A DNA stretch of 64,000 bases from a phage. The position numbers and the translations under genes were made by a program. Location of the stretch: assembly GCA_033664045.1 (NCBI GenBank), contig GCA_033664045.1_3674.1. One strand, 5' to 3'. The number at the start of each line of letters is the position of its first letter. Positions within the stretch are counted from its first letter, which is position 1. The notes beneath the pieces are model-generated. The model had not been told where the DNA came from. It was given only the letters and a program-made list of their open reading frames with translations, and ran no database searches. Shown in pieces: positions 14,914 through 19,777 of this stretch.

Positions 14914-14988
14914 GCCCTGTTAGCTTAGTGGATAAAGCAGCGGCCTTCTAAGCCGTTGACACTGGTTCGAGTCCAGTACGGGGTGCCA
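14914..14988 (+). tRNA. tRNA-Arg (anticodon TCT)
   Basis: Hand-folded cloverleaf: acceptor GCCCTGT/ACGGGGT with G-U pairs, anticodon loop CTTCTAA, T-loop TTCGAGT, encoded CCA. Ends approximate. Confidence 0.75.
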
Positions 14989-14992
14989 AATT

Positions 14993-15079
14993 GGGGAGTT
15001 ATCCCGTAGAGGTAGCGGTGTAGACTGTAAATCTATTGTCATTGCGACTCGGGTGGTTCGACTCCACCACTCCCCACCA
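14993..15079 (+). tRNA. tRNA-Tyr (anticodon GTA), class II with long variable arm
   Basis: Acceptor GGGGAGT/ACTCCCC, anticodon loop CTGTAAA, T-arm GGTTCGACTCC, encoded CCA; architecture parallels E. coli tRNA-Tyr. Confidence 0.8.
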
Positions 15080-15193
15080 AATTTATATTTTTAAATGTAT
15101 AAATCATACAGATAATGGCATTGATATTTATCGTCGTTTATACTAGTCACTAACTGCTCGAAAATCAGTGTCATTATCAGTATTGTTTATAAA

Positions 15194-15284
15194 AGAGGGT
15201 AGGGAGCAATGGTGCTCAAGCGGTCTTGAAAACCGTCCCGTTGAGGATGACTCGATGATGGTTCGATTCCATTACCCTCTGCCA
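15194..15284 (+). tRNA. tRNA-Ser (anticodon TGA), class II
   Basis: Acceptor AGAGGGT/ACCCTCT, anticodon stem-loop CGGTCTTGAAAACCG, long extra arm, T-arm GGTTCGATTCC, CCA. Confidence 0.75.
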
Positions 15285-15372
15285 TATTGTTGACCTTGTA
15301 ATTAAGCGAAAGCCGGAAGCAGAACCGGATTATCAAATGTTACAGTCGTCATCGCCGACTAGCAACATGGTC

Positions 15373-15481
15373 AACATACTGAGCTAGGTAAGCCCTTTGG
15401 CAAGGGCGAGGATTTTTAATCCTGAAAATAGACGAGGTAGTCGTTGAATACATAGGTGGTTCGATTCCACCGCCTAGCACC
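15373..15481 (+). tRNA. aberrant tRNA-like gene (about 107 nt), possible pseudo-tRNA
   Basis: Perfect acceptor GCTAGGT/GCCTAGC and T-arm GGTGGTTCGATTCCACC, but anticodon region AGGAT-TTTTA-ATCCT and a roughly 30-nt extra arm; CC but no encoded CCA. Confidence 0.35.
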
Positions 15482-15486
15482 TTTTT

Positions 15487-15562
15487 GCTGATGTAGCACA
15501 ATTGGTAATGCAATTGATTTGTAATCAATAGGTTGCAGGTTCAAGTCCTGCCATCAGCACCA
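15487..15562 (+). tRNA. tRNA-Thr (anticodon TGT)
   Basis: Acceptor GCTGATG/CATCAGC, anticodon stem-loop ATTGA-TTTGTAA-TCAAT, T-arm GCAGGTTCAAGTCCTGC, CCA. Confidence 0.8.
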
Positions 15563-15563
15563 A

Positions 15564-15638
15564 GGCCCTGTAGCTGGAAGGTTCAAGCAAGCGACTCATA
15601 ATCGCCAGACGGTGGTTCAATTCCACCCAGGGCCACCA
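15564..15638 (+). tRNA. tRNA-Met-type (anticodon CAT; elongator Met or Ile2 not resolved)
   Basis: Acceptor GGCCCTG/CAGGGCC fully paired, anticodon loop CTCATAA, T-arm GGTGGTTCAATTCCACC, CCA. Confidence 0.7.
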
Positions 15639-15649
15639 AATAATAAATA

Positions 15650-15726
15650 CTCCGCGTAGCTCAGCTTGGTAGAGCGCCTGATTTGGGATCAGGAGGTCGA
15701 GTGTTCGAATCACTCCGTGGAGACCA
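15650..15726 (+). tRNA. tRNA-Pro (anticodon TGG)
   Basis: Acceptor CTCCGCG/CGTGGAG, canonical D-arm GCTCAGCTTGGTAGAGC, anticodon stem-loop CCTGA-TTTGGGA-TCAGG, T-loop TTCGAAT, CCA. Confidence 0.85.
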
Positions 15727-16147: not shown

Positions 16148-16546
16148 ATGATTTCAGTTTTAACATGGCTGAGTAGGTATAAAGGGATCATAAAAGGTTT
16201 AGTTTTTGCAGCTGCGATAGGTACAGCTTATCTTGGGGCCGTGTATTGGTTTAACTCCAAGCTTAATGATGCCTACCAGGAGGGTGTGTCAGCAACAGAG
16301 TTAAAGTGGGAACGGATCCTTGATCAGCAACAAAAGCAGGCCGACAAAATTAAAATGGGCCACGCAGAGGAGGTTAAAAACCTTGAAAAATCCCTTTCTG
16401 ACCTGCAGGATAAATTAAATATGGCTGAGAAGGCAGGTAAAGAAAAGCAGATTATTTACCTCCAATCACCTGAGGGTAAGAAGTCAACACTCCCTGATCA
16501 GCTTATAGATATTTATAATGAGAGTATTAATCAGGAGGGTCGATGA
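16148..16546 (+). CDS. i-spanin (Rz-like), putative
   Basis: N-terminal TM helix GLVFAAAIGTAYLGAVYWF followed by charged coiled-coil-like periplasmic region; 3' end overlaps next ORF in ATGA. Confidence 0.55.
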   Translation: MISVLTWLSRYKGIIKGLVFAAAIGTAYLGAVYWFNSKLNDAYQEGVSATELKWERILDQQQKQADKIKMGHAEEVKNLEKSLSDLQDKLNMAEKAGKEKQIIYLQSPEGKKSTLPDQLIDIYNESINQEGR

Positions 16547-16830
16547 GAGTTGCTGCACTGTTTATTGTGTGCTTGTTATTGTGTGGGTGTGCAACCAGCG
16601 TTGAGAGAGAATACAAGATTGACCCTCCAGATGTAGGAAGGTTGATTGTTAAACCCCCGGAAGGTGCCATGAAACCACCTGCTAAAGCTATGCCTTTGAA
16701 GAAAGGTGCGCCAGATGCAGTGAATTCTGGCATTATGAGGGATAATAATCTGTCTTGTAGCAATGATAGAGCTAAATTGATCATTTTGCAAGACTACATT
16801 AGAACACTGTTTCCAAAGGAGAGAGGTTAA
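16543..16830 (+). CDS. o-spanin (Rz1-like lipoprotein), putative
   Basis: Signal peptide with Cys-containing lipobox-like LLLCGCATS, proline-rich mature part (KPPEGAMKPPAKAMP); 4-bp overlap with i-spanin. Confidence 0.55.
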   Translation: MRVAALFIVCLLLCGCATSVEREYKIDPPDVGRLIVKPPEGAMKPPAKAMPLKKGAPDAVNSGIMRDNNLSCSNDRAKLIILQDYIRTLFPKERG

Positions 16831-17255
16831 TGTCTAAGATTTACGGACCGTGTTCTGAAAAGCAGAAGATGATCCTAGAAAACGATGCAGATATTTTGGT
16901 AATCGGCGGTGCCGCAGGGTCTGGCAAGTCGTTCCTCTTGCAGTTGATGCCACTTAAAATTATTGATGACCCCCACAGCTCTGTGGTTATGTTCCGAAGA
17001 ACAACCCCGCAGTTGGAAGGTGAGGGTGGACTATGGCCTAAAGCAGTAGCTATTTATAGTGATCTGCCTGAAAACATTAAGCCAAAGTTCAGAGAGAAGG
17101 ATCATAAGTTCATTTTTCCACGGTTTGATCCGAACACTGGTAAGTGGGATAGAAGCAAAAAGGGAGCTGTTGTAAAATACTGCCACATGGAGTATGTACA
17201 AGATAAGCTTAACCATCAGGGGCTTGAGTACACCATGGTTTGCTTCGATGAGGGT
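16830..17255 (+). CDS. terminase large subunit, exon 1 (ATPase N-terminus)
   Basis: Walker A LVIGGAAGSGKSF and Walker B MVCFDEG; frame stops at TAA 17256-17258, exactly where the intron begins. Confidence 0.8.
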
Positions 17256-17574
17256 TAATTTGTAGCTCTCGTAAAACCTCCCTAATTGCGGGGAAATCTT
17301 TATTATTGACACCACCAACCTGTTATGGTAACATAATAGAGGCTTCGAAGAGAGATCGAAGGTATGGTAACAGTGTGTTAATTTAGATAATCCGCAGCGA
17401 AGCATCCGATAGGATGAACGTTCAACGACTAGTCGAGAGACGTAGAATCAAGCGATTCGAAACGGGAGGGTAAGCGGTTGTTGTCGCTTATAAGATATAG
17501 TCTGGTCTGCATGGAGACATGCAGCTGCCTGAAAATGGCGGGGCAAGACTAGCGACCTTGCCTGAACATAAACG
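17256..17574 (+). mobile_element. group I self-splicing intron (no ORF)
   Basis: Core elements P AATTGCGGGGAAA (17284-17296), Q AATCCGCAGC (17389-17398), R GTTCAACGACTAGTC (17420-17434), S AAGATATAGTCT (17492-17503); P1 exon GAGGGU (17250-17255) pairs with GCUCUC (17265-17270) including U.G at splice site; ends with G17574. Confidence 0.75.
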
Positions 17575-17891
17575 ACACAATTCGAATGGGAGCAGATAGA
17601 CTATCTGATGTCTCGTCTGCGATCTCAGTCAAAGTATCCATCAAGAATGGTTATCAGCTGTAACCCCGATTCAGAACACATGCTTGCCAAACTGGTTAGA
17701 TGGTGGTTGGACGATGAAGGGTATCCAGATCCGGAGAAATGCGGTAAGAAAAGATATTTTATCCGACGCGACGGTGAATTTATTTGGGGAGACTCTAAGG
17801 AAGAGTTGATAGAGAAATACACCACGGTTAACGGGCTGGGTGTAGAGATCAAGCCAAGACCGTTGTCATTCTCGTTCATAGGCGCAACCAT
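17575..17891 (+). CDS. terminase large subunit, exon 2
   Basis: In-frame continuation TQFEWEQIDYLMSRL...MVISCNPD...SFSFIGATI; 3' boundary uncertain by 1-4 nt. Confidence 0.65.
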
Positions 17892-18888
17892 TAAATAATA
17901 GTGGCTTCGTGCAGAAATGCACGTCGAATAACTTCGTTAATTGCTGGAAAATCCGATTGCTAAACGGACAATCAGCAGCTATAATTACCCTTCCGAACCT
18001 GTAGTAGGGAGATGTTTGAAATGAAAAATTTAGGCTTTTTAGGCTACAATCATTATTGTGCTACATACGATGGCAGAATTTACAGTCTGTATTCTAATAA
18101 ATTCCTCCATCCTAATGTGCAGAAAAAGACTGGCTATGCTATGGTAACTTTGTGCGAGGACGGTAAAAAGTTCCAAGTGCTCGTTCACAGAGTGATTGCT
18201 ATGACTTTTGTTGATAATGATAATCCCAGCGTGAAAACTCAAGTAAATCACCTTGATGGCAATAAGTTGAATAACGCCGCATGGAACCTTGAGTGGACAA
18301 CACCTGAGGAAAACACACATCATGCTCATGAAATGGGACTTAAAAAGGACTATGTCAATAAATACAGGTCCCTAGATGATGCCACTGCTCTTGAAATATG
18401 TAGACTGTTAGAGCAAGGTGCAAGGGTAAAAGACATTTGTGAAATGTTTGGTGTCAATCAACCACTTGTAAGTGGTATAAAGAATGGCTCAGTATACCCA
18501 GATATTTCTAAAGAGTTTAACTTTAGAAAAGTGCCAACCTCTAATAGGATAAGTGAGCACAAGATAATAGGTATCTGCGAGGATCTTAGTGATAGGGTTT
18601 TGTGTGTAAATAAAATAGCTAAGAAGTGGGGCGTAAGTTTTAGTGTTGTTAAAGGAATAAAAGACCGTAAGACTTACACCTATATTTCAAACAATTACGA
18701 TTGGTAATGTAGTTCAACGACTATCCCGAGAGGGAGTAGGGCGCAAGCTTATGGCGCTCGAAAAGCGAAGCACCCTGAGATGGGTGGTGATATAGTCTAC
18801 TCTGCATGGTAACATGCAGCGGCACGTAATGGTGCGGAGGGTGGTGTTGCGACCACCTTTGAATATAAGGATTCGATAATCCTGTCTG
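17892..18888 (+). mobile_element. group I intron carrying an HNH homing endonuclease gene
   Basis: P-like AATTGCTGGAAAA (17939-17951), R GTTCAACGACTATCC (18712-18726), S GATATAGTCT (18789-18798); 3' region near-identical to intron 1 (ATATAGTCT..TCTGCATGG..ACATGCAGC); P1 CCAUU/AGUGG with U.G. Confidence 0.7.
18012..18707 (+). CDS. HNH homing endonuclease (intron-encoded)
   Basis: HNH core QVLVHRVIAMTF...VNHLDGNKLNNAAWNLEWTTPEENTHHA with C-terminal HTH-like repeats; sits between the intron Q and R elements. Confidence 0.8.
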   Translation: MFEMKNLGFLGYNHYCATYDGRIYSLYSNKFLHPNVQKKTGYAMVTLCEDGKKFQVLVHRVIAMTFVDNDNPSVKTQVNHLDGNKLNNAAWNLEWTTPEENTHHAHEMGLKKDYVNKYRSLDDATALEICRLLEQGARVKDICEMFGVNQPLVSGIKNGSVYPDISKEFNFRKVPTSNRISEHKIIGICEDLSDRVLCVNKIAKKWGVSFSVVKGIKDRKTYTYISNNYDW

Positions 18889-19675
18889 TTTGAGAGACAA
18901 CCCAGAATACCTTGCTTTCCTCGAAGGTCTACCAGAGCTGGAAAAAGCTCAGCTTCTCCATGGTAACTGGTTTGCAAAGCCTGAGGGTGCAAACTATTTT
19001 CAAAGATCTTTCCTTCGTGATGCCGATAGAGTACCCCTTGGATCAGTATCTTGCAGGGCATGGGATAAGGCAGGAACCGAGAGAACTTCCGGTAATAAAT
19101 TTCCTGACTTTACCGCCAGTGTTAAGGTAAGTAAAGATAGCGACGGATTTTATTACCTGTCAGGAGATTATTGTCCTGAAAACGTAGATGACGGGAGGTA
19201 TTCCACAGGTCTGGAAGGCAAGTTCTGTAAAAAGGCTGGTGAACGAGATGTGATCATCAGGAAACAGGCGCAGTTTGATGGTGATGATTGTATAATCGTA
19301 TTCTCTGTGGACCCCGGTCAGGCAGGTAAGAGTGAGTTCTTAACCTCATCCAGATCCTTGCTCGCAGAAGGGTTCAGGGTTGAAGAAGACCCAATGCCTT
19401 CCAACAAGTCTAAACTGACAAGGTTCTCACCTTTTGCCAATCTTGCCCAACAAGGGATGGTGAGGATTGTAAAATCCAGTTTCCATCCTGATACTCTGGA
19501 AGCATTTCTGACCGAACTTGAAAAATTCAACGGGGAAAGATCAACATTTAACAGAAAAGACGACTGGGCTGACTGTGTAGCTTCTGCAATTAATTTCCTG
19601 GAGAAAGAGGAGGTAGCACTTCCTTGTGTGATTCCATCAATCTCATCACCTTCTATGTTCAAGCGTTTTATCTAA
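18889..19675 (+). CDS. terminase large subunit, exon 3 (nuclease domain)
   Basis: (L)RDNPEYLAFLEGLPELEKAQLLHGNW then acidic nuclease motifs RAWDKAG, VDPGQAGKSEF, DDWADC; frame open only from 18869. Confidence 0.75.
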
Positions 19676-19725
19676 GTGTTGCCAATCTTAATTAGATGTG
19701 GTAGAATAGATTAATCGGAGATACT

Positions 19726-19752
19726 AGCCCTCTAACACGAGGGCTATTTTGT
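19726..19752 (+). terminator. terminator-like hairpin after terminase
   Basis: AGCCCTC-taacac-GAGGGCT followed by ATTTTGTT. Confidence 0.5.
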
Positions 19753-19777
19753 TATACTGTTTTGAGGGGTAAAGCTT

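Follow-up and report, generated by a model that had tools for sequence, protein, structure and literature searches.

How does a phage make its terminase large subunit (TerL) from a gene that is broken into three open reading frames? The question is raised by the window, the 64,000-nt stretch of DNA analysed here, which comes from a Vequintavirus (rV5-like) coliphage, a myovirus. The pieces of terL, and the terminator-like element behind them, lie as follows:

16830..17255, + strand: terL exon 1, 142 codons with Walker A (GGAAGSGKS) and Walker B (CFDE), ending ...GAG GGT; based on the ORF at 16830-17258 (MSKIY...GGAAGSGKS...CFDEG, then stop), which matches Terminase_6N, with the junction set by intron-1-minus alleles.
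17575..17891, + strand: terL exon 2, 317 nt, encoding TQFEWEQ...SFSFIGAT plus the AT of an Ile codon.
18871..19675, + strand: terL exon 3, A followed by FDNPVCLRDNPEYL..., encoding the end of the ATPase domain and the RNaseH-like nuclease domain, with the stop codon at 19673-19675.
19725..19756, + strand: intrinsic-terminator-like hairpin and T-run, 3' of terL.

The first-pass annotation had described an ATPase N-terminus in an ORF ending at 17258, and this ORF is present, with both Walker motifs as given. It had placed the remainder of TerL at about 17575-17891 and 18889-19675. The bounds of exon 2 stand, while exon 3 begins at 18871; alignment with intron-less alleles shows that the later start left out six and a third codons (I-FDNPVC). 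At its 5' end exon 2 has neither a start codon nor a ribosome-binding site of its own; it lines up colinearly with uninterrupted terL and corresponds to positions 111-162 of the Terminase_6N profile; exon 3 matches Terminase_6C. Predicted splicing (...GAUGAGGGU/ACACAAUUC... between exons 1 and 2, ...GCAACCAU/AUUCGAUAA... between exons 2 and 3) yields a 1,548-nt ORF for a TerL of 515 aa. In this protein a single Terminase_6N domain (72.2 bits, aa 25-294) crosses both junctions and is followed by Terminase_6C (27.9 bits, aa 394-489), which puts the ATPase (Walker A/B) and the C-terminal RNaseH-like nuclease expected of a terminase large subunit in one spliced polypeptide. Annotated TerL proteins from many genera share 34-69% identity with it over aa 1-514. 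These comparisons support the three ORFs as pieces of one TerL, and the three-exon gene that had been proposed is borne out by a spliced ORF colinear with intron-less homologues and by the one Terminase_6N domain over both junctions. In rV5 and HdK5 the position equivalent to the 3' hairpin carries an annotated Rho-independent terminator.

Could the three ORFs instead be made as separate polypeptides that form a split terminase without RNA splicing? Several GenBank records give each piece its own entry as a 'terminase-like family protein', and ATG 17608 and TTG 18890 are possible internal starts. Starting there, however, would cost 11 and 6 conserved residues, both breaks interrupt one ATPase domain, exon 2 ends in the middle of a codon (AT/A) and the intervening DNA is bona fide ribozyme. 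In addition, about half of the close relatives carry the gene uninterrupted, with 0-2 amino-acid differences. We therefore regard a split terminase as highly improbable.

Among 50 sampled relatives, twenty-four have a single-piece terL of 1,548 nt, the spliced length. Removing both introns restores an ORF colinear with intron-less homologues, and comparison with intron-minus alleles confirms the junctions at single-nucleotide resolution: exactly the 319 nt of intron 1 are missing from PDX and other alleles, and exactly the 979 nt of intron 2 from LL12. The exon 2/3 junction is ACC AT/A TTC here, and LL12 and other intron-2-minus alleles read AC(A) ATA TT(T/C). A search of five relatives for the exact strings of the predicted spliced junctions gave no matches because intron-minus alleles differ synonymously right at the sites; gapped alignment resolved them. 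Uninterrupted terL colinear with the spliced gene is also found in other genera (4MG, KNP2, UPEC06, Felix O1-like phages and others). Comparison with intron-less homologues, the check that had been suggested for the exon boundaries, thus fixed the junctions and indicates that the three ORFs are not independent proteins.

Relatives also speak to the idea that the locus is a decaying pseudogene or an assembly artefact with non-functional insertions. Viable lytic phages with exactly this architecture include rV5, SophiaRose and other isolates, and it recurs at 98% identity in the independently sequenced rV5, SophiaRose and O157 typing phage 5. Strong purifying selection acts on the exons, where as many as 94 nucleotide differences come with at most 2 amino-acid differences, and the ORF within intron 2 is intact. 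The comparative data effectively refute decay or artefact.

What are the two inserts? Their features are these:

17256..17574, + strand: intron 1, 319 nt, ORF-less group I intron, IA2/td-like, starting with an in-frame TAA and ending in a terminal G.
17250..17270, + strand: P1 of intron 1, exon GAGGGU and intron UA paired with internal guide UAGCUCUC.
17892..18870, + strand: intron 2, 979 nt, group I intron, IA2/td-like, with the HNH ORF in its P6 loop.
17888..17904, + strand: P1 of intron 2, exon CCAU and intron UA paired with UAGUGG; U.G at U17891.
18012..18707, + strand: ORF for a predicted intron-encoded HNH homing endonuclease, 231 aa, I-HmuI-like, with a C-terminal HTH.

Against the Rfam model RF00028 (gathering score 50 bits), intron 1 scores 84.3 bits (E = 5e-20). 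The window's own copy of intron 2 gives two sub-threshold fragments (34.4 and 14.8 bits) because an ORF of about 0.7 kb splits its ribozyme into a 5' part (17892-17989) and a 3' part (18703-18870). A natural ORF-less allele of intron 2 (RudolfGeigy, 1353-1579), to which the ribozyme parts in the window are 98-99% identical, scores 95.6 bits (E = 5.5e-24). The threshold is thus passed by intron 1 in the window and by intron 2 through its ORF-less allele, and the covariance search that had been named as a check on the inserts did find the group I core. The case for a ribozyme in intron 2 rests on this allele and on manually inspected helices. A permissive Rfam scan of the whole window found no further group I introns.

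On helix-by-helix inspection, all helices from P1 to P9.2 form in both introns, save the P2 that intron 1 lacks, and pairing is canonical throughout their P3-P8 core with its P3/P7 pseudoknot and its P, Q, R and S elements. In intron 1 these elements lie at 17284-17296 (P), 17389-17398 (Q), 17420-17434 (R) and 17492-17503 (S); the core elements of intron 2 are AATTGCTGGAAAA (17939-17951), AATCAGCAGC (17970-17979), GTTCAACGACTA (18712-18723) and GTGATATAGTCT (18787-18798). One set of P/Q/R/S strings had been quoted for both segments; it is found in intron 1, and the elements of intron 2 are variants rather than identical copies. The near-identical 3' block said to be common to the two introns is present (17494-17528 vs 18789-18823, 86% identical over 35 nt), with the R element matching at 12/12 positions. 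Both introns have a U.G wobble in P1 at the end of the 5' exon and an omega G at the intron end (G17574 and G18870). The P1 drawn earlier for intron 1, GAGGGU with GCUCUC, a U.G pair and a terminal G, was right as far as it went; the helix is longer than six pairs, with 8 bp between 17250-17257 and 17263-17270 and the U.G pair at U17255. P1 of intron 2 has 6 bp.

Intron 1 is without P2 and has a big P5 extension, P7.1/P7.2, P9.1 and P9.2. The P7.1 and P7.2 hairpins that mark subgroup IA2 occur in both introns, and the 3' domain is close to that of the T4 td intron, so we place both in IA2, a structural assignment rather than the output of a subgroup-specific model. The td intron is a classic self-splicer. 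With its I-TevI gene it too is an IA2 intron with P7.1/P7.2, P9.1/P9.2 and an endonuclease ORF looped out of P6, and its P7-P9.2 domain shares long invariant runs with the window introns, including GATATAGTCT..TCTGCATGG..ACATGCAGC and TGAA.ATAA..G at the 3' splice site. The 3' 80 nt of intron 1 are 83.5% identical to td. The td intron differs in host gene (thymidylate synthase vs terL), in nuclease (GIY-YIG I-TevI vs HNH) and in the sequences of its 5' half and peripheral helices, and intron 1 of the window is without P2. P3, P7.1, P7.2, P8 and P9.2 differ in sequence, with pairing kept, among intron 1, intron 2, td and a phiKZ-like intron. We used this helix-by-helix comparison for relatedness; a global MAFFT alignment of intron 1 with ORF-less intron 2 gave 58% identity, an unreliable figure because P2 and P5 differ in size and put the 5' halves out of register. 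Covariance model, helix inspection and td homology together support both inserts as group I introns, and by sequence the two appear to be td-like paralogues of each other. An intein reading was rejected because both inserts have in-frame stop codons and are RNA structures.

We read the locus as a terL interrupted by two paralogous, self-splicing, td-like IA2 introns, the second of them mobile by means of its HNH nuclease, and give this reading a probability of about 0.93. The sequences themselves show the ribozyme cores, the exact junctions, the colinearity of terL, the polymorphism in intron presence and the marks of horizontal movement; from these we infer splicing itself, as well as the activity and target of the nuclease. 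A pre-mRNA would be transcribed across 16830-19675, and each intron would fold into the P3-P7 pseudoknot core with peripheral P7.1/P7.2 and P9.1/P9.2 helices and a P1 that places its U.G pair at the 5' splice site. Each would then bind exogenous guanosine and excise itself through two transesterifications, making the joins GGU/ACA (aa 142/143, right after the Walker B DE) and AU/A (Ile248, right before FDNP). In-frame stops (TAA at +1 of intron 1 and at +5 of intron 2) would keep ribosomes out of the unspliced ribozymes. Dependence of packaging on splicing, as had been proposed, would be a logical consequence.

Splicing need not be unaided. Several group I introns of Bastillevirinae phages, some of them in terL, splice in vivo and not in vitro, so strict self-splicing may not hold here (PMC11878797). 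One or both of the terL introns, though real, could depend on proteins of host or phage as cofactors, or be spliced inefficiently, which would limit or time the supply of TerL. This alternative departs from the main explanation in cofactor dependence only. The missing P2 and unusually large P5 extension of intron 1 would fit it, but both cores are complete, far over the Rfam threshold (intron 2 through its ORF-less allele) and close to td, and we think it unlikely that such help is needed. Joining of exons 1 and 3 has been reported for the terL of SIOphi (PMC11878797). Here such skipping is improbable: GGT/ATT CGA TAA is out of frame and stops immediately, and the hybrid ribozyme would be without P3 pairing (CCUCCC/GGGAGG vs CUUCGU/GCGAAG).

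The three-exon terL and its HNH gene are already known, annotated and published for rV5. Gene, both insertion sites, intron lengths (319 and 979 nt) and HNH ORF are all the same in rV5 (ORF64ABC, GenBank DQ832317, and ORF65), and the two loci are 97.9% identical over 2,846 bp, only about 2% point substitutions apart. In its section 'Introns in terminase', the rV5 paper inferred the split from BLASTX (Kropinski et al. 2013; PMC3606486). The passages of that paper on this locus deal with neither ribozyme structure, subgroup, intron relatedness, population polymorphism nor splicing data, and the literature searched held no splicing experiment on rV5-like phages. Certrevirus CB7, a relative within Vequintavirinae, has an HNH-bearing terL intron whose splicing was demonstrated by RT-PCR (PMC7344957). 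More generally, the terL introns of Lactobacillus phage LL-H, CB7 and Bastillevirinae (SIOphi, phiAGATE) are also group I and often HNH-bearing; some of these genes have two or three introns, and splicing was shown by RT-PCR or in vitro. These lineages are distinct from that of the window phage.

An HNH endonuclease ORF had been placed between the Q and R elements of intron 2, and it does lie there, in the P6 loop. Its likelier start is ATG 18021, 9 nt downstream of GGGAG, and its stop codon falls inside the 3' strand of P6 (GGUAAU, 18703-18708). The product matches Pfam HNH_3 (PF13392, 28.0 bits, cut-off 24.8) and HTH_23, and residues 11-154 align with I-HmuI (PDB 1U3E, E = 3e-11), the HNH nicking endonuclease from the group I intron in the DNA polymerase gene of Bacillus phage SPO1. 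Thus an HNH domain above the Pfam threshold is joined by homology to a characterised intron-encoded enzyme, and the ORF is annotated in rV5 as HNH homing endonuclease ORF65; together these support a predicted HNH homing endonuclease. The alignment spans 144 residues, covering the HNH core and N-terminal beta region, and keeps the context of the H...N...N catalytic motif (VNHLDGNKLNN vs VDHKDGNKDNN). Each protein is encoded within a phage group I intron. They differ in size (231 vs 174 aa), in the C-terminal DNA-binding part, which is a different HTH here, and in target gene.

With three states each for intron 1 (absent, ORF-less or with EndoVII) and intron 2 (absent, ORF-less or with HNH), nine combinations are possible, and eight of them occur among the relatives. 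The terL spans fall into classes of 1548, 1816, 1867, 2135, 2431, 2527, 2846 and 3410 bp, which are all combinations but one of 319/883-nt and 268/979-nt inserts. In other vequintaviruses intron 1 carries an Endonuclease VII-family ORF in P8; the window has the ORF-less form. The window and YP-6 share 98.7% identity in intron 2 and 93.9% in the exons, and the exons of YP-6 are 98.1% identical to those of the intron-less SYGMH1. An intron more conserved between phages than its exons indicates recent mobility and, with presence/absence polymorphism within species-level clusters, is indirect evidence that the HNH intron homes. The I-HmuI-like nuclease would presumably nick or cut intron-less terL alleles during mixed infection, and repair would copy intron 2 into the recipient gene, together with a few nucleotides of flanking exon. 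Intron 1 is present in 5/7 carriers of intron 2 with HNH and in 17/43 non-carriers (50 rows; numbers small and uncorrected for phylogeny).

Only three of 154 variable exon sites (14 alleles) track intron status perfectly, and all lie within 3 nt of an insertion site: spliced positions 426 and 429 (-1 and +3 of site 1) and 741 (-3 of site 2), all three being positions of P1/P10 pairing. T17255 is found in 6/6 intron-1-plus and 0/8 intron-1-minus alleles; C17889 is found in 7/7 intron-2-plus alleles and is A in 7/7 intron-2-minus alleles. Selection on P1/P10 pairing, co-conversion or nuclease resistance could each account for such linkage.

A tentative hypothesis, which we consider possible though doubtful, is that nucleases of terL introns act as weapons in mixed infections, cutting the intron-less terL of other vequintaviruses, crippling the packaging of the rival and spreading the intron. 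It would cover both the HNH enzyme of intron 2 and the Endonuclease VII-type nuclease found in intron 1 of relatives. There is a parallel in the intron endonuclease of phiPA3, which acts against phiKZ (PMC11620839). If the hypothesis holds, the three linked exon nucleotides would mark sensitive and immune alleles, and co-conversion could carry along the ORF-less intron 1, which lies 317 bp away, as a hitch-hiker.

Rather than a new type of element, the locus is a textbook example of how mobile group I introns target the most highly conserved motifs in an essential phage gene. All stages of the homing cycle (empty site, intron with nuclease, ORF-less intron) are visible across the genus, so the gain and loss of introns, and possibly phage-phage competition, can conveniently be studied in Vequintavirus terL as a natural system. 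For this phage group, the terL fragments are still annotated one by one, as 'hypothetical' or 'terminase-like' proteins, in many GenBank records; with the exact junctions determined, the correct terL join can be entered in those records.

The region 16830-19675 is ~98 per cent identical to Vequintavirus (rV5-like) coliphages, and an ORF map shows three ORFs on one strand that resemble TerL. We set the exon-intron junctions by gapped alignment to one-intron relatives (PDX, without intron 1, and LL12, without intron 2).

Features of the terL region
16830-17258, +, TerL ORF: first half of Terminase_6N, with Walker A and B
17575-17898, +, TerL ORF: Terminase_6N profile positions 111-162
18890-19675, +, TerL ORF: Terminase_6C match
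16830-17255, exon 1 (426 nt)
17256-17574, intron 1 (319 nt)
17575-17891, exon 2 (317 nt)
17892-18870, intron 2 (979 nt)
18871-19675, exon 3 (805 nt)
18012-18707, +, HNH_3 + HTH ORF (231 aa)

After splicing, terL is a 1,548-nt ORF encoding 515 amino acids, with a single Terminase_6N domain (72 bits, residues 25-294 of the spliced protein) crossing both junctions. The uninterrupted TerL of 4MG, KNP2, UPEC06, Felix O1-like and many other phages is colinear with it, aligning over residues 1-514, so the three ORFs are not independent proteins. The three-exon gene proposed in the first-pass annotation is thus borne out, except that its exon 3 start (18889) lies 18 nt too late; the alignment gives 18871. 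Intron 1 is inserted directly after the DE of Walker B (CFDEG/TQFEW) and intron 2 ahead of a conserved FDNP (GATI/FDNP). Homing endonucleases typically target conserved motifs of this sort (PMC3984707). An in-frame TAA lies at the outset of each intron (17256-17258 and 17896-17898).

Both intervening segments are group I introns, as first suggested. The proposed covariance-model scan (Rfam RF00028, gathering score 50 bits) found a group I core in intron 1 at 17246-17524 (84.3 bits, E = 5e-20). Intron 2 gave only sub-threshold fragments in the window (34.4 and 14.8 bits) because its HNH ORF splits the ribozyme; the same intron in phage RudolfGeigy lacks the ORF, is 268 nt long and scores 95.6 bits, and its ribozyme parts are 98.9 per cent (5′) and 98.1 per cent (3′) identical to the window's. 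We checked each helix via direct complementarity. The P1 predicted for intron 1, with a U.G pair at the splice site, is present and comprises 8 bp (U17255.G); P3, P4, P5 (with a ~70-nt extension), P6, P7, P7.1, P7.2, P8, P9, P9.1 and P9.2 also form, and P2 is absent. Intron 2 has a 6-bp P1 (U17891.G), P2 and P3-P9.2. A short P10 that pairs the three opening nucleotides of the downstream exon can be drawn for each intron (ACA/UGU for intron 1 and, by inspection, AUU/AAU for intron 2). The introns are also related as claimed, sharing a 35-nt block (86 per cent identical) and an identical 12-nt R element; they are paralogues.

The P7.1/P7.2 hairpins and 3′-domain sequence place both introns with that of T4 td (IA2 type), which is 83.5 per cent identical to intron 1 over the latter's last 80 nt. 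A four-way alignment of td, a phiKZ-like intron and introns 1 and 2 contains long invariant runs, and P7.1, P7.2, P8 and P9.2 vary in sequence yet pair in all four. Pseudomonas phage ANB1 (Phikzvirus; L015) carries an ORF-less group I intron at 523-751 (84.2 bits), 73 per cent identical to intron 1 across ~190 nt. It is flanked by short ORFs labelled 'hypothetical proteins', and its host gene is probably mis-annotated as fragments.

The HNH ORF reported in intron 2 was confirmed. It sits in the P6 loop, its TAA stop falling within the P6 3′ strand (GGUAAU, 18703-18708), and its product matches I-HmuI (PDB 1U3E, E = 3e-11). A sigma-70-like promoter match (17957-17985, +; TTGCTA-17 nt-TATAAT, 10/12) precedes the ORF by 27 nt, and its TATAAT is in a segment confined to ORF-bearing alleles. 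This candidate promoter might drive nuclease expression independently, although promoter-like matches show no clear enrichment over the region (11 against 7.1 ± 2.4 expected). RudolfGeigy has a different short P6 hairpin (CCUGA-AUAU-UCAGG, ~1451-1471 of L003), unrelated to the window's AUUACC/GGUAAU (17980-18711 compared). The ORF-less intron 2 is therefore not a plain deletion of the HNH ORF; rather, the two forms differ by cassette replacement.

In the best-supported model, one terL pre-mRNA would undergo ordinary group I splicing, with the TAA stops releasing ribosomes before they enter the ribozymes. Intron 2 would be a homing element, active or recently so, driven by its I-HmuI-like HNH enzyme. 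We infer that packaging depends on splicing, since the ATPase domain is split. Viable isolates with the same architecture (e.g. rV5 and SophiaRose) argue that splicing works. In Certrevirus CB7, a related subfamily member, splicing of an HNH-bearing terL intron has been proven by RT-PCR (PMC7344957).

We queried with the spliced CDS, took 50 full-length vequintavirus matches at even steps through the ranked list and sorted them by span. Of the nine possible intron combinations, eight were seen.

Intron states among 50 sampled vequintavirus records
1548 bp (one record 1556): no intron, 24 records
1867 bp: intron 1 alone, 6 records
2431 bp: intron 1 with 196-aa ORF, 8 records
1816 bp: ORF-less intron 2 alone, 2 records
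2135 bp: intron 1 plus ORF-less intron 2, 3 records
2527 bp: intron 2 with HNH alone, 2 records
2846 bp: the window's own type, 3 records
3410 bp: two introns, each with an ORF, 2 records

Intron status differs even inside a single ICTV species: within Vequintavirus FFH2, PDX carries intron 2 with HNH, FFH2 none and C7 the ORF-less form. Eighteen GenBank records (MG0656xx) labelled as Campylobacter phages, e.g. MG065658 'Campylobacter phage C7' (L011, UNVERIFIED), are classified as Vequintavirus and have terL 96-99 per cent identical to the window's; the host labels are probably wrong, the sequences being contaminating coliphages.

An alignment of 14 alleles has 154 variable sites among its 1,548 exon positions, and the protein differs at no more than two residues. 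Only three exon sites follow intron status without exception, all through synonymous changes.

Exon sites linked to intron status
Spliced 426 (window 17255): T in all intron-1-plus alleles, C or A in minus; U of the U.G pair
Spliced 429 (window 17577): A in intron-plus alleles, G in minus; +3, P10
Spliced 741 (window 17889): C in all intron-2-plus alleles, A in minus; pairs with G in P1

This pattern fits co-conversion during homing, selection on guide pairing, nuclease-resistant empty sites or a mixture of these. Between the window and YP-6, intron 2 is 98.7 per cent identical and the exons only 93.9 per cent; against PDX the values are 99.9 and 97.6 per cent. YP-6 exons are 98.1 per cent identical to those of intron-less SYGMH1. 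The excess of intron over exon identity points to recent movement of intron 2 between diverged terL backgrounds.

In HdK5 and DrSchubert, the P8 hairpin of intron 1 is replaced by a 196-aa ORF of the Endonuclease_7 family (PF02945, 76 bits).

EndoVII-type intron 1
HdK5 (L004) 727-1609: intron, 883 nt; ORF at 945-1535
DrSchubert (L012) 745-1335: EndoVII-family ORF

Mapped via alignment, the ORF apparently takes its stop from the TAG in the conserved S element (3′ strand of P7). The window's intron 1 is an ORF-less derivative, or precursor, of this intron. Intron homing nucleases of the EndoVII type have been described less often than HNH or GIY-YIG enzymes.

The split terL, though correct, was already known. 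In the rV5 GenBank record, 'terminase large subunit ORF64ABC' is joined from three pieces and encloses 'HNH homing endonuclease ORF65'; Kropinski et al. (2013; PMC3606486) treat 'Introns in terminase' in a paragraph of their paper and acknowledge David Shub as having defined the intron location; LL12 and BASEL phages are annotated with joins; and Bastillevirinae terL genes interrupted by two or three group I introns are documented (PMC11878797). In the literature searched we found no explicit structures, td-family assignment or paralogy of the two introns, nor the eight-state polymorphism or the three linked exon nucleotides, which are incremental additions. A distant TerL homologue (46 per cent identity) in Shewanella sp. 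phage 1/4 (NC_025436, 46967-49514) is likewise divided in two, its parts separated by an HNH endonuclease; terL has probably gained an intron independently there.

Directly upstream of terL lies an i-spanin/o-spanin pair (16148-16546 and 16543-16830, +), the latter with a lipobox-like LLLCGC. The two spanin genes share an ATGA, and the stop codon of the o-spanin overlaps the start codon of terL (TAATG). Lysis genes adjoining terminase have been noted as typical of this subfamily. A phage tRNA cluster occupies 14914-15726 (+; Arg-TCT, Tyr-GTA, Ser-TGA, Thr-TGT, Met-CAT, Pro-TGG). An odd 99-nt tRNA-like call at 15383-15481 (ARAGORN 'tRNA-???', 4-nt anticodon) scores 31 bits on the Rfam tRNA model, barely above threshold; its variable arm seems to be very long.
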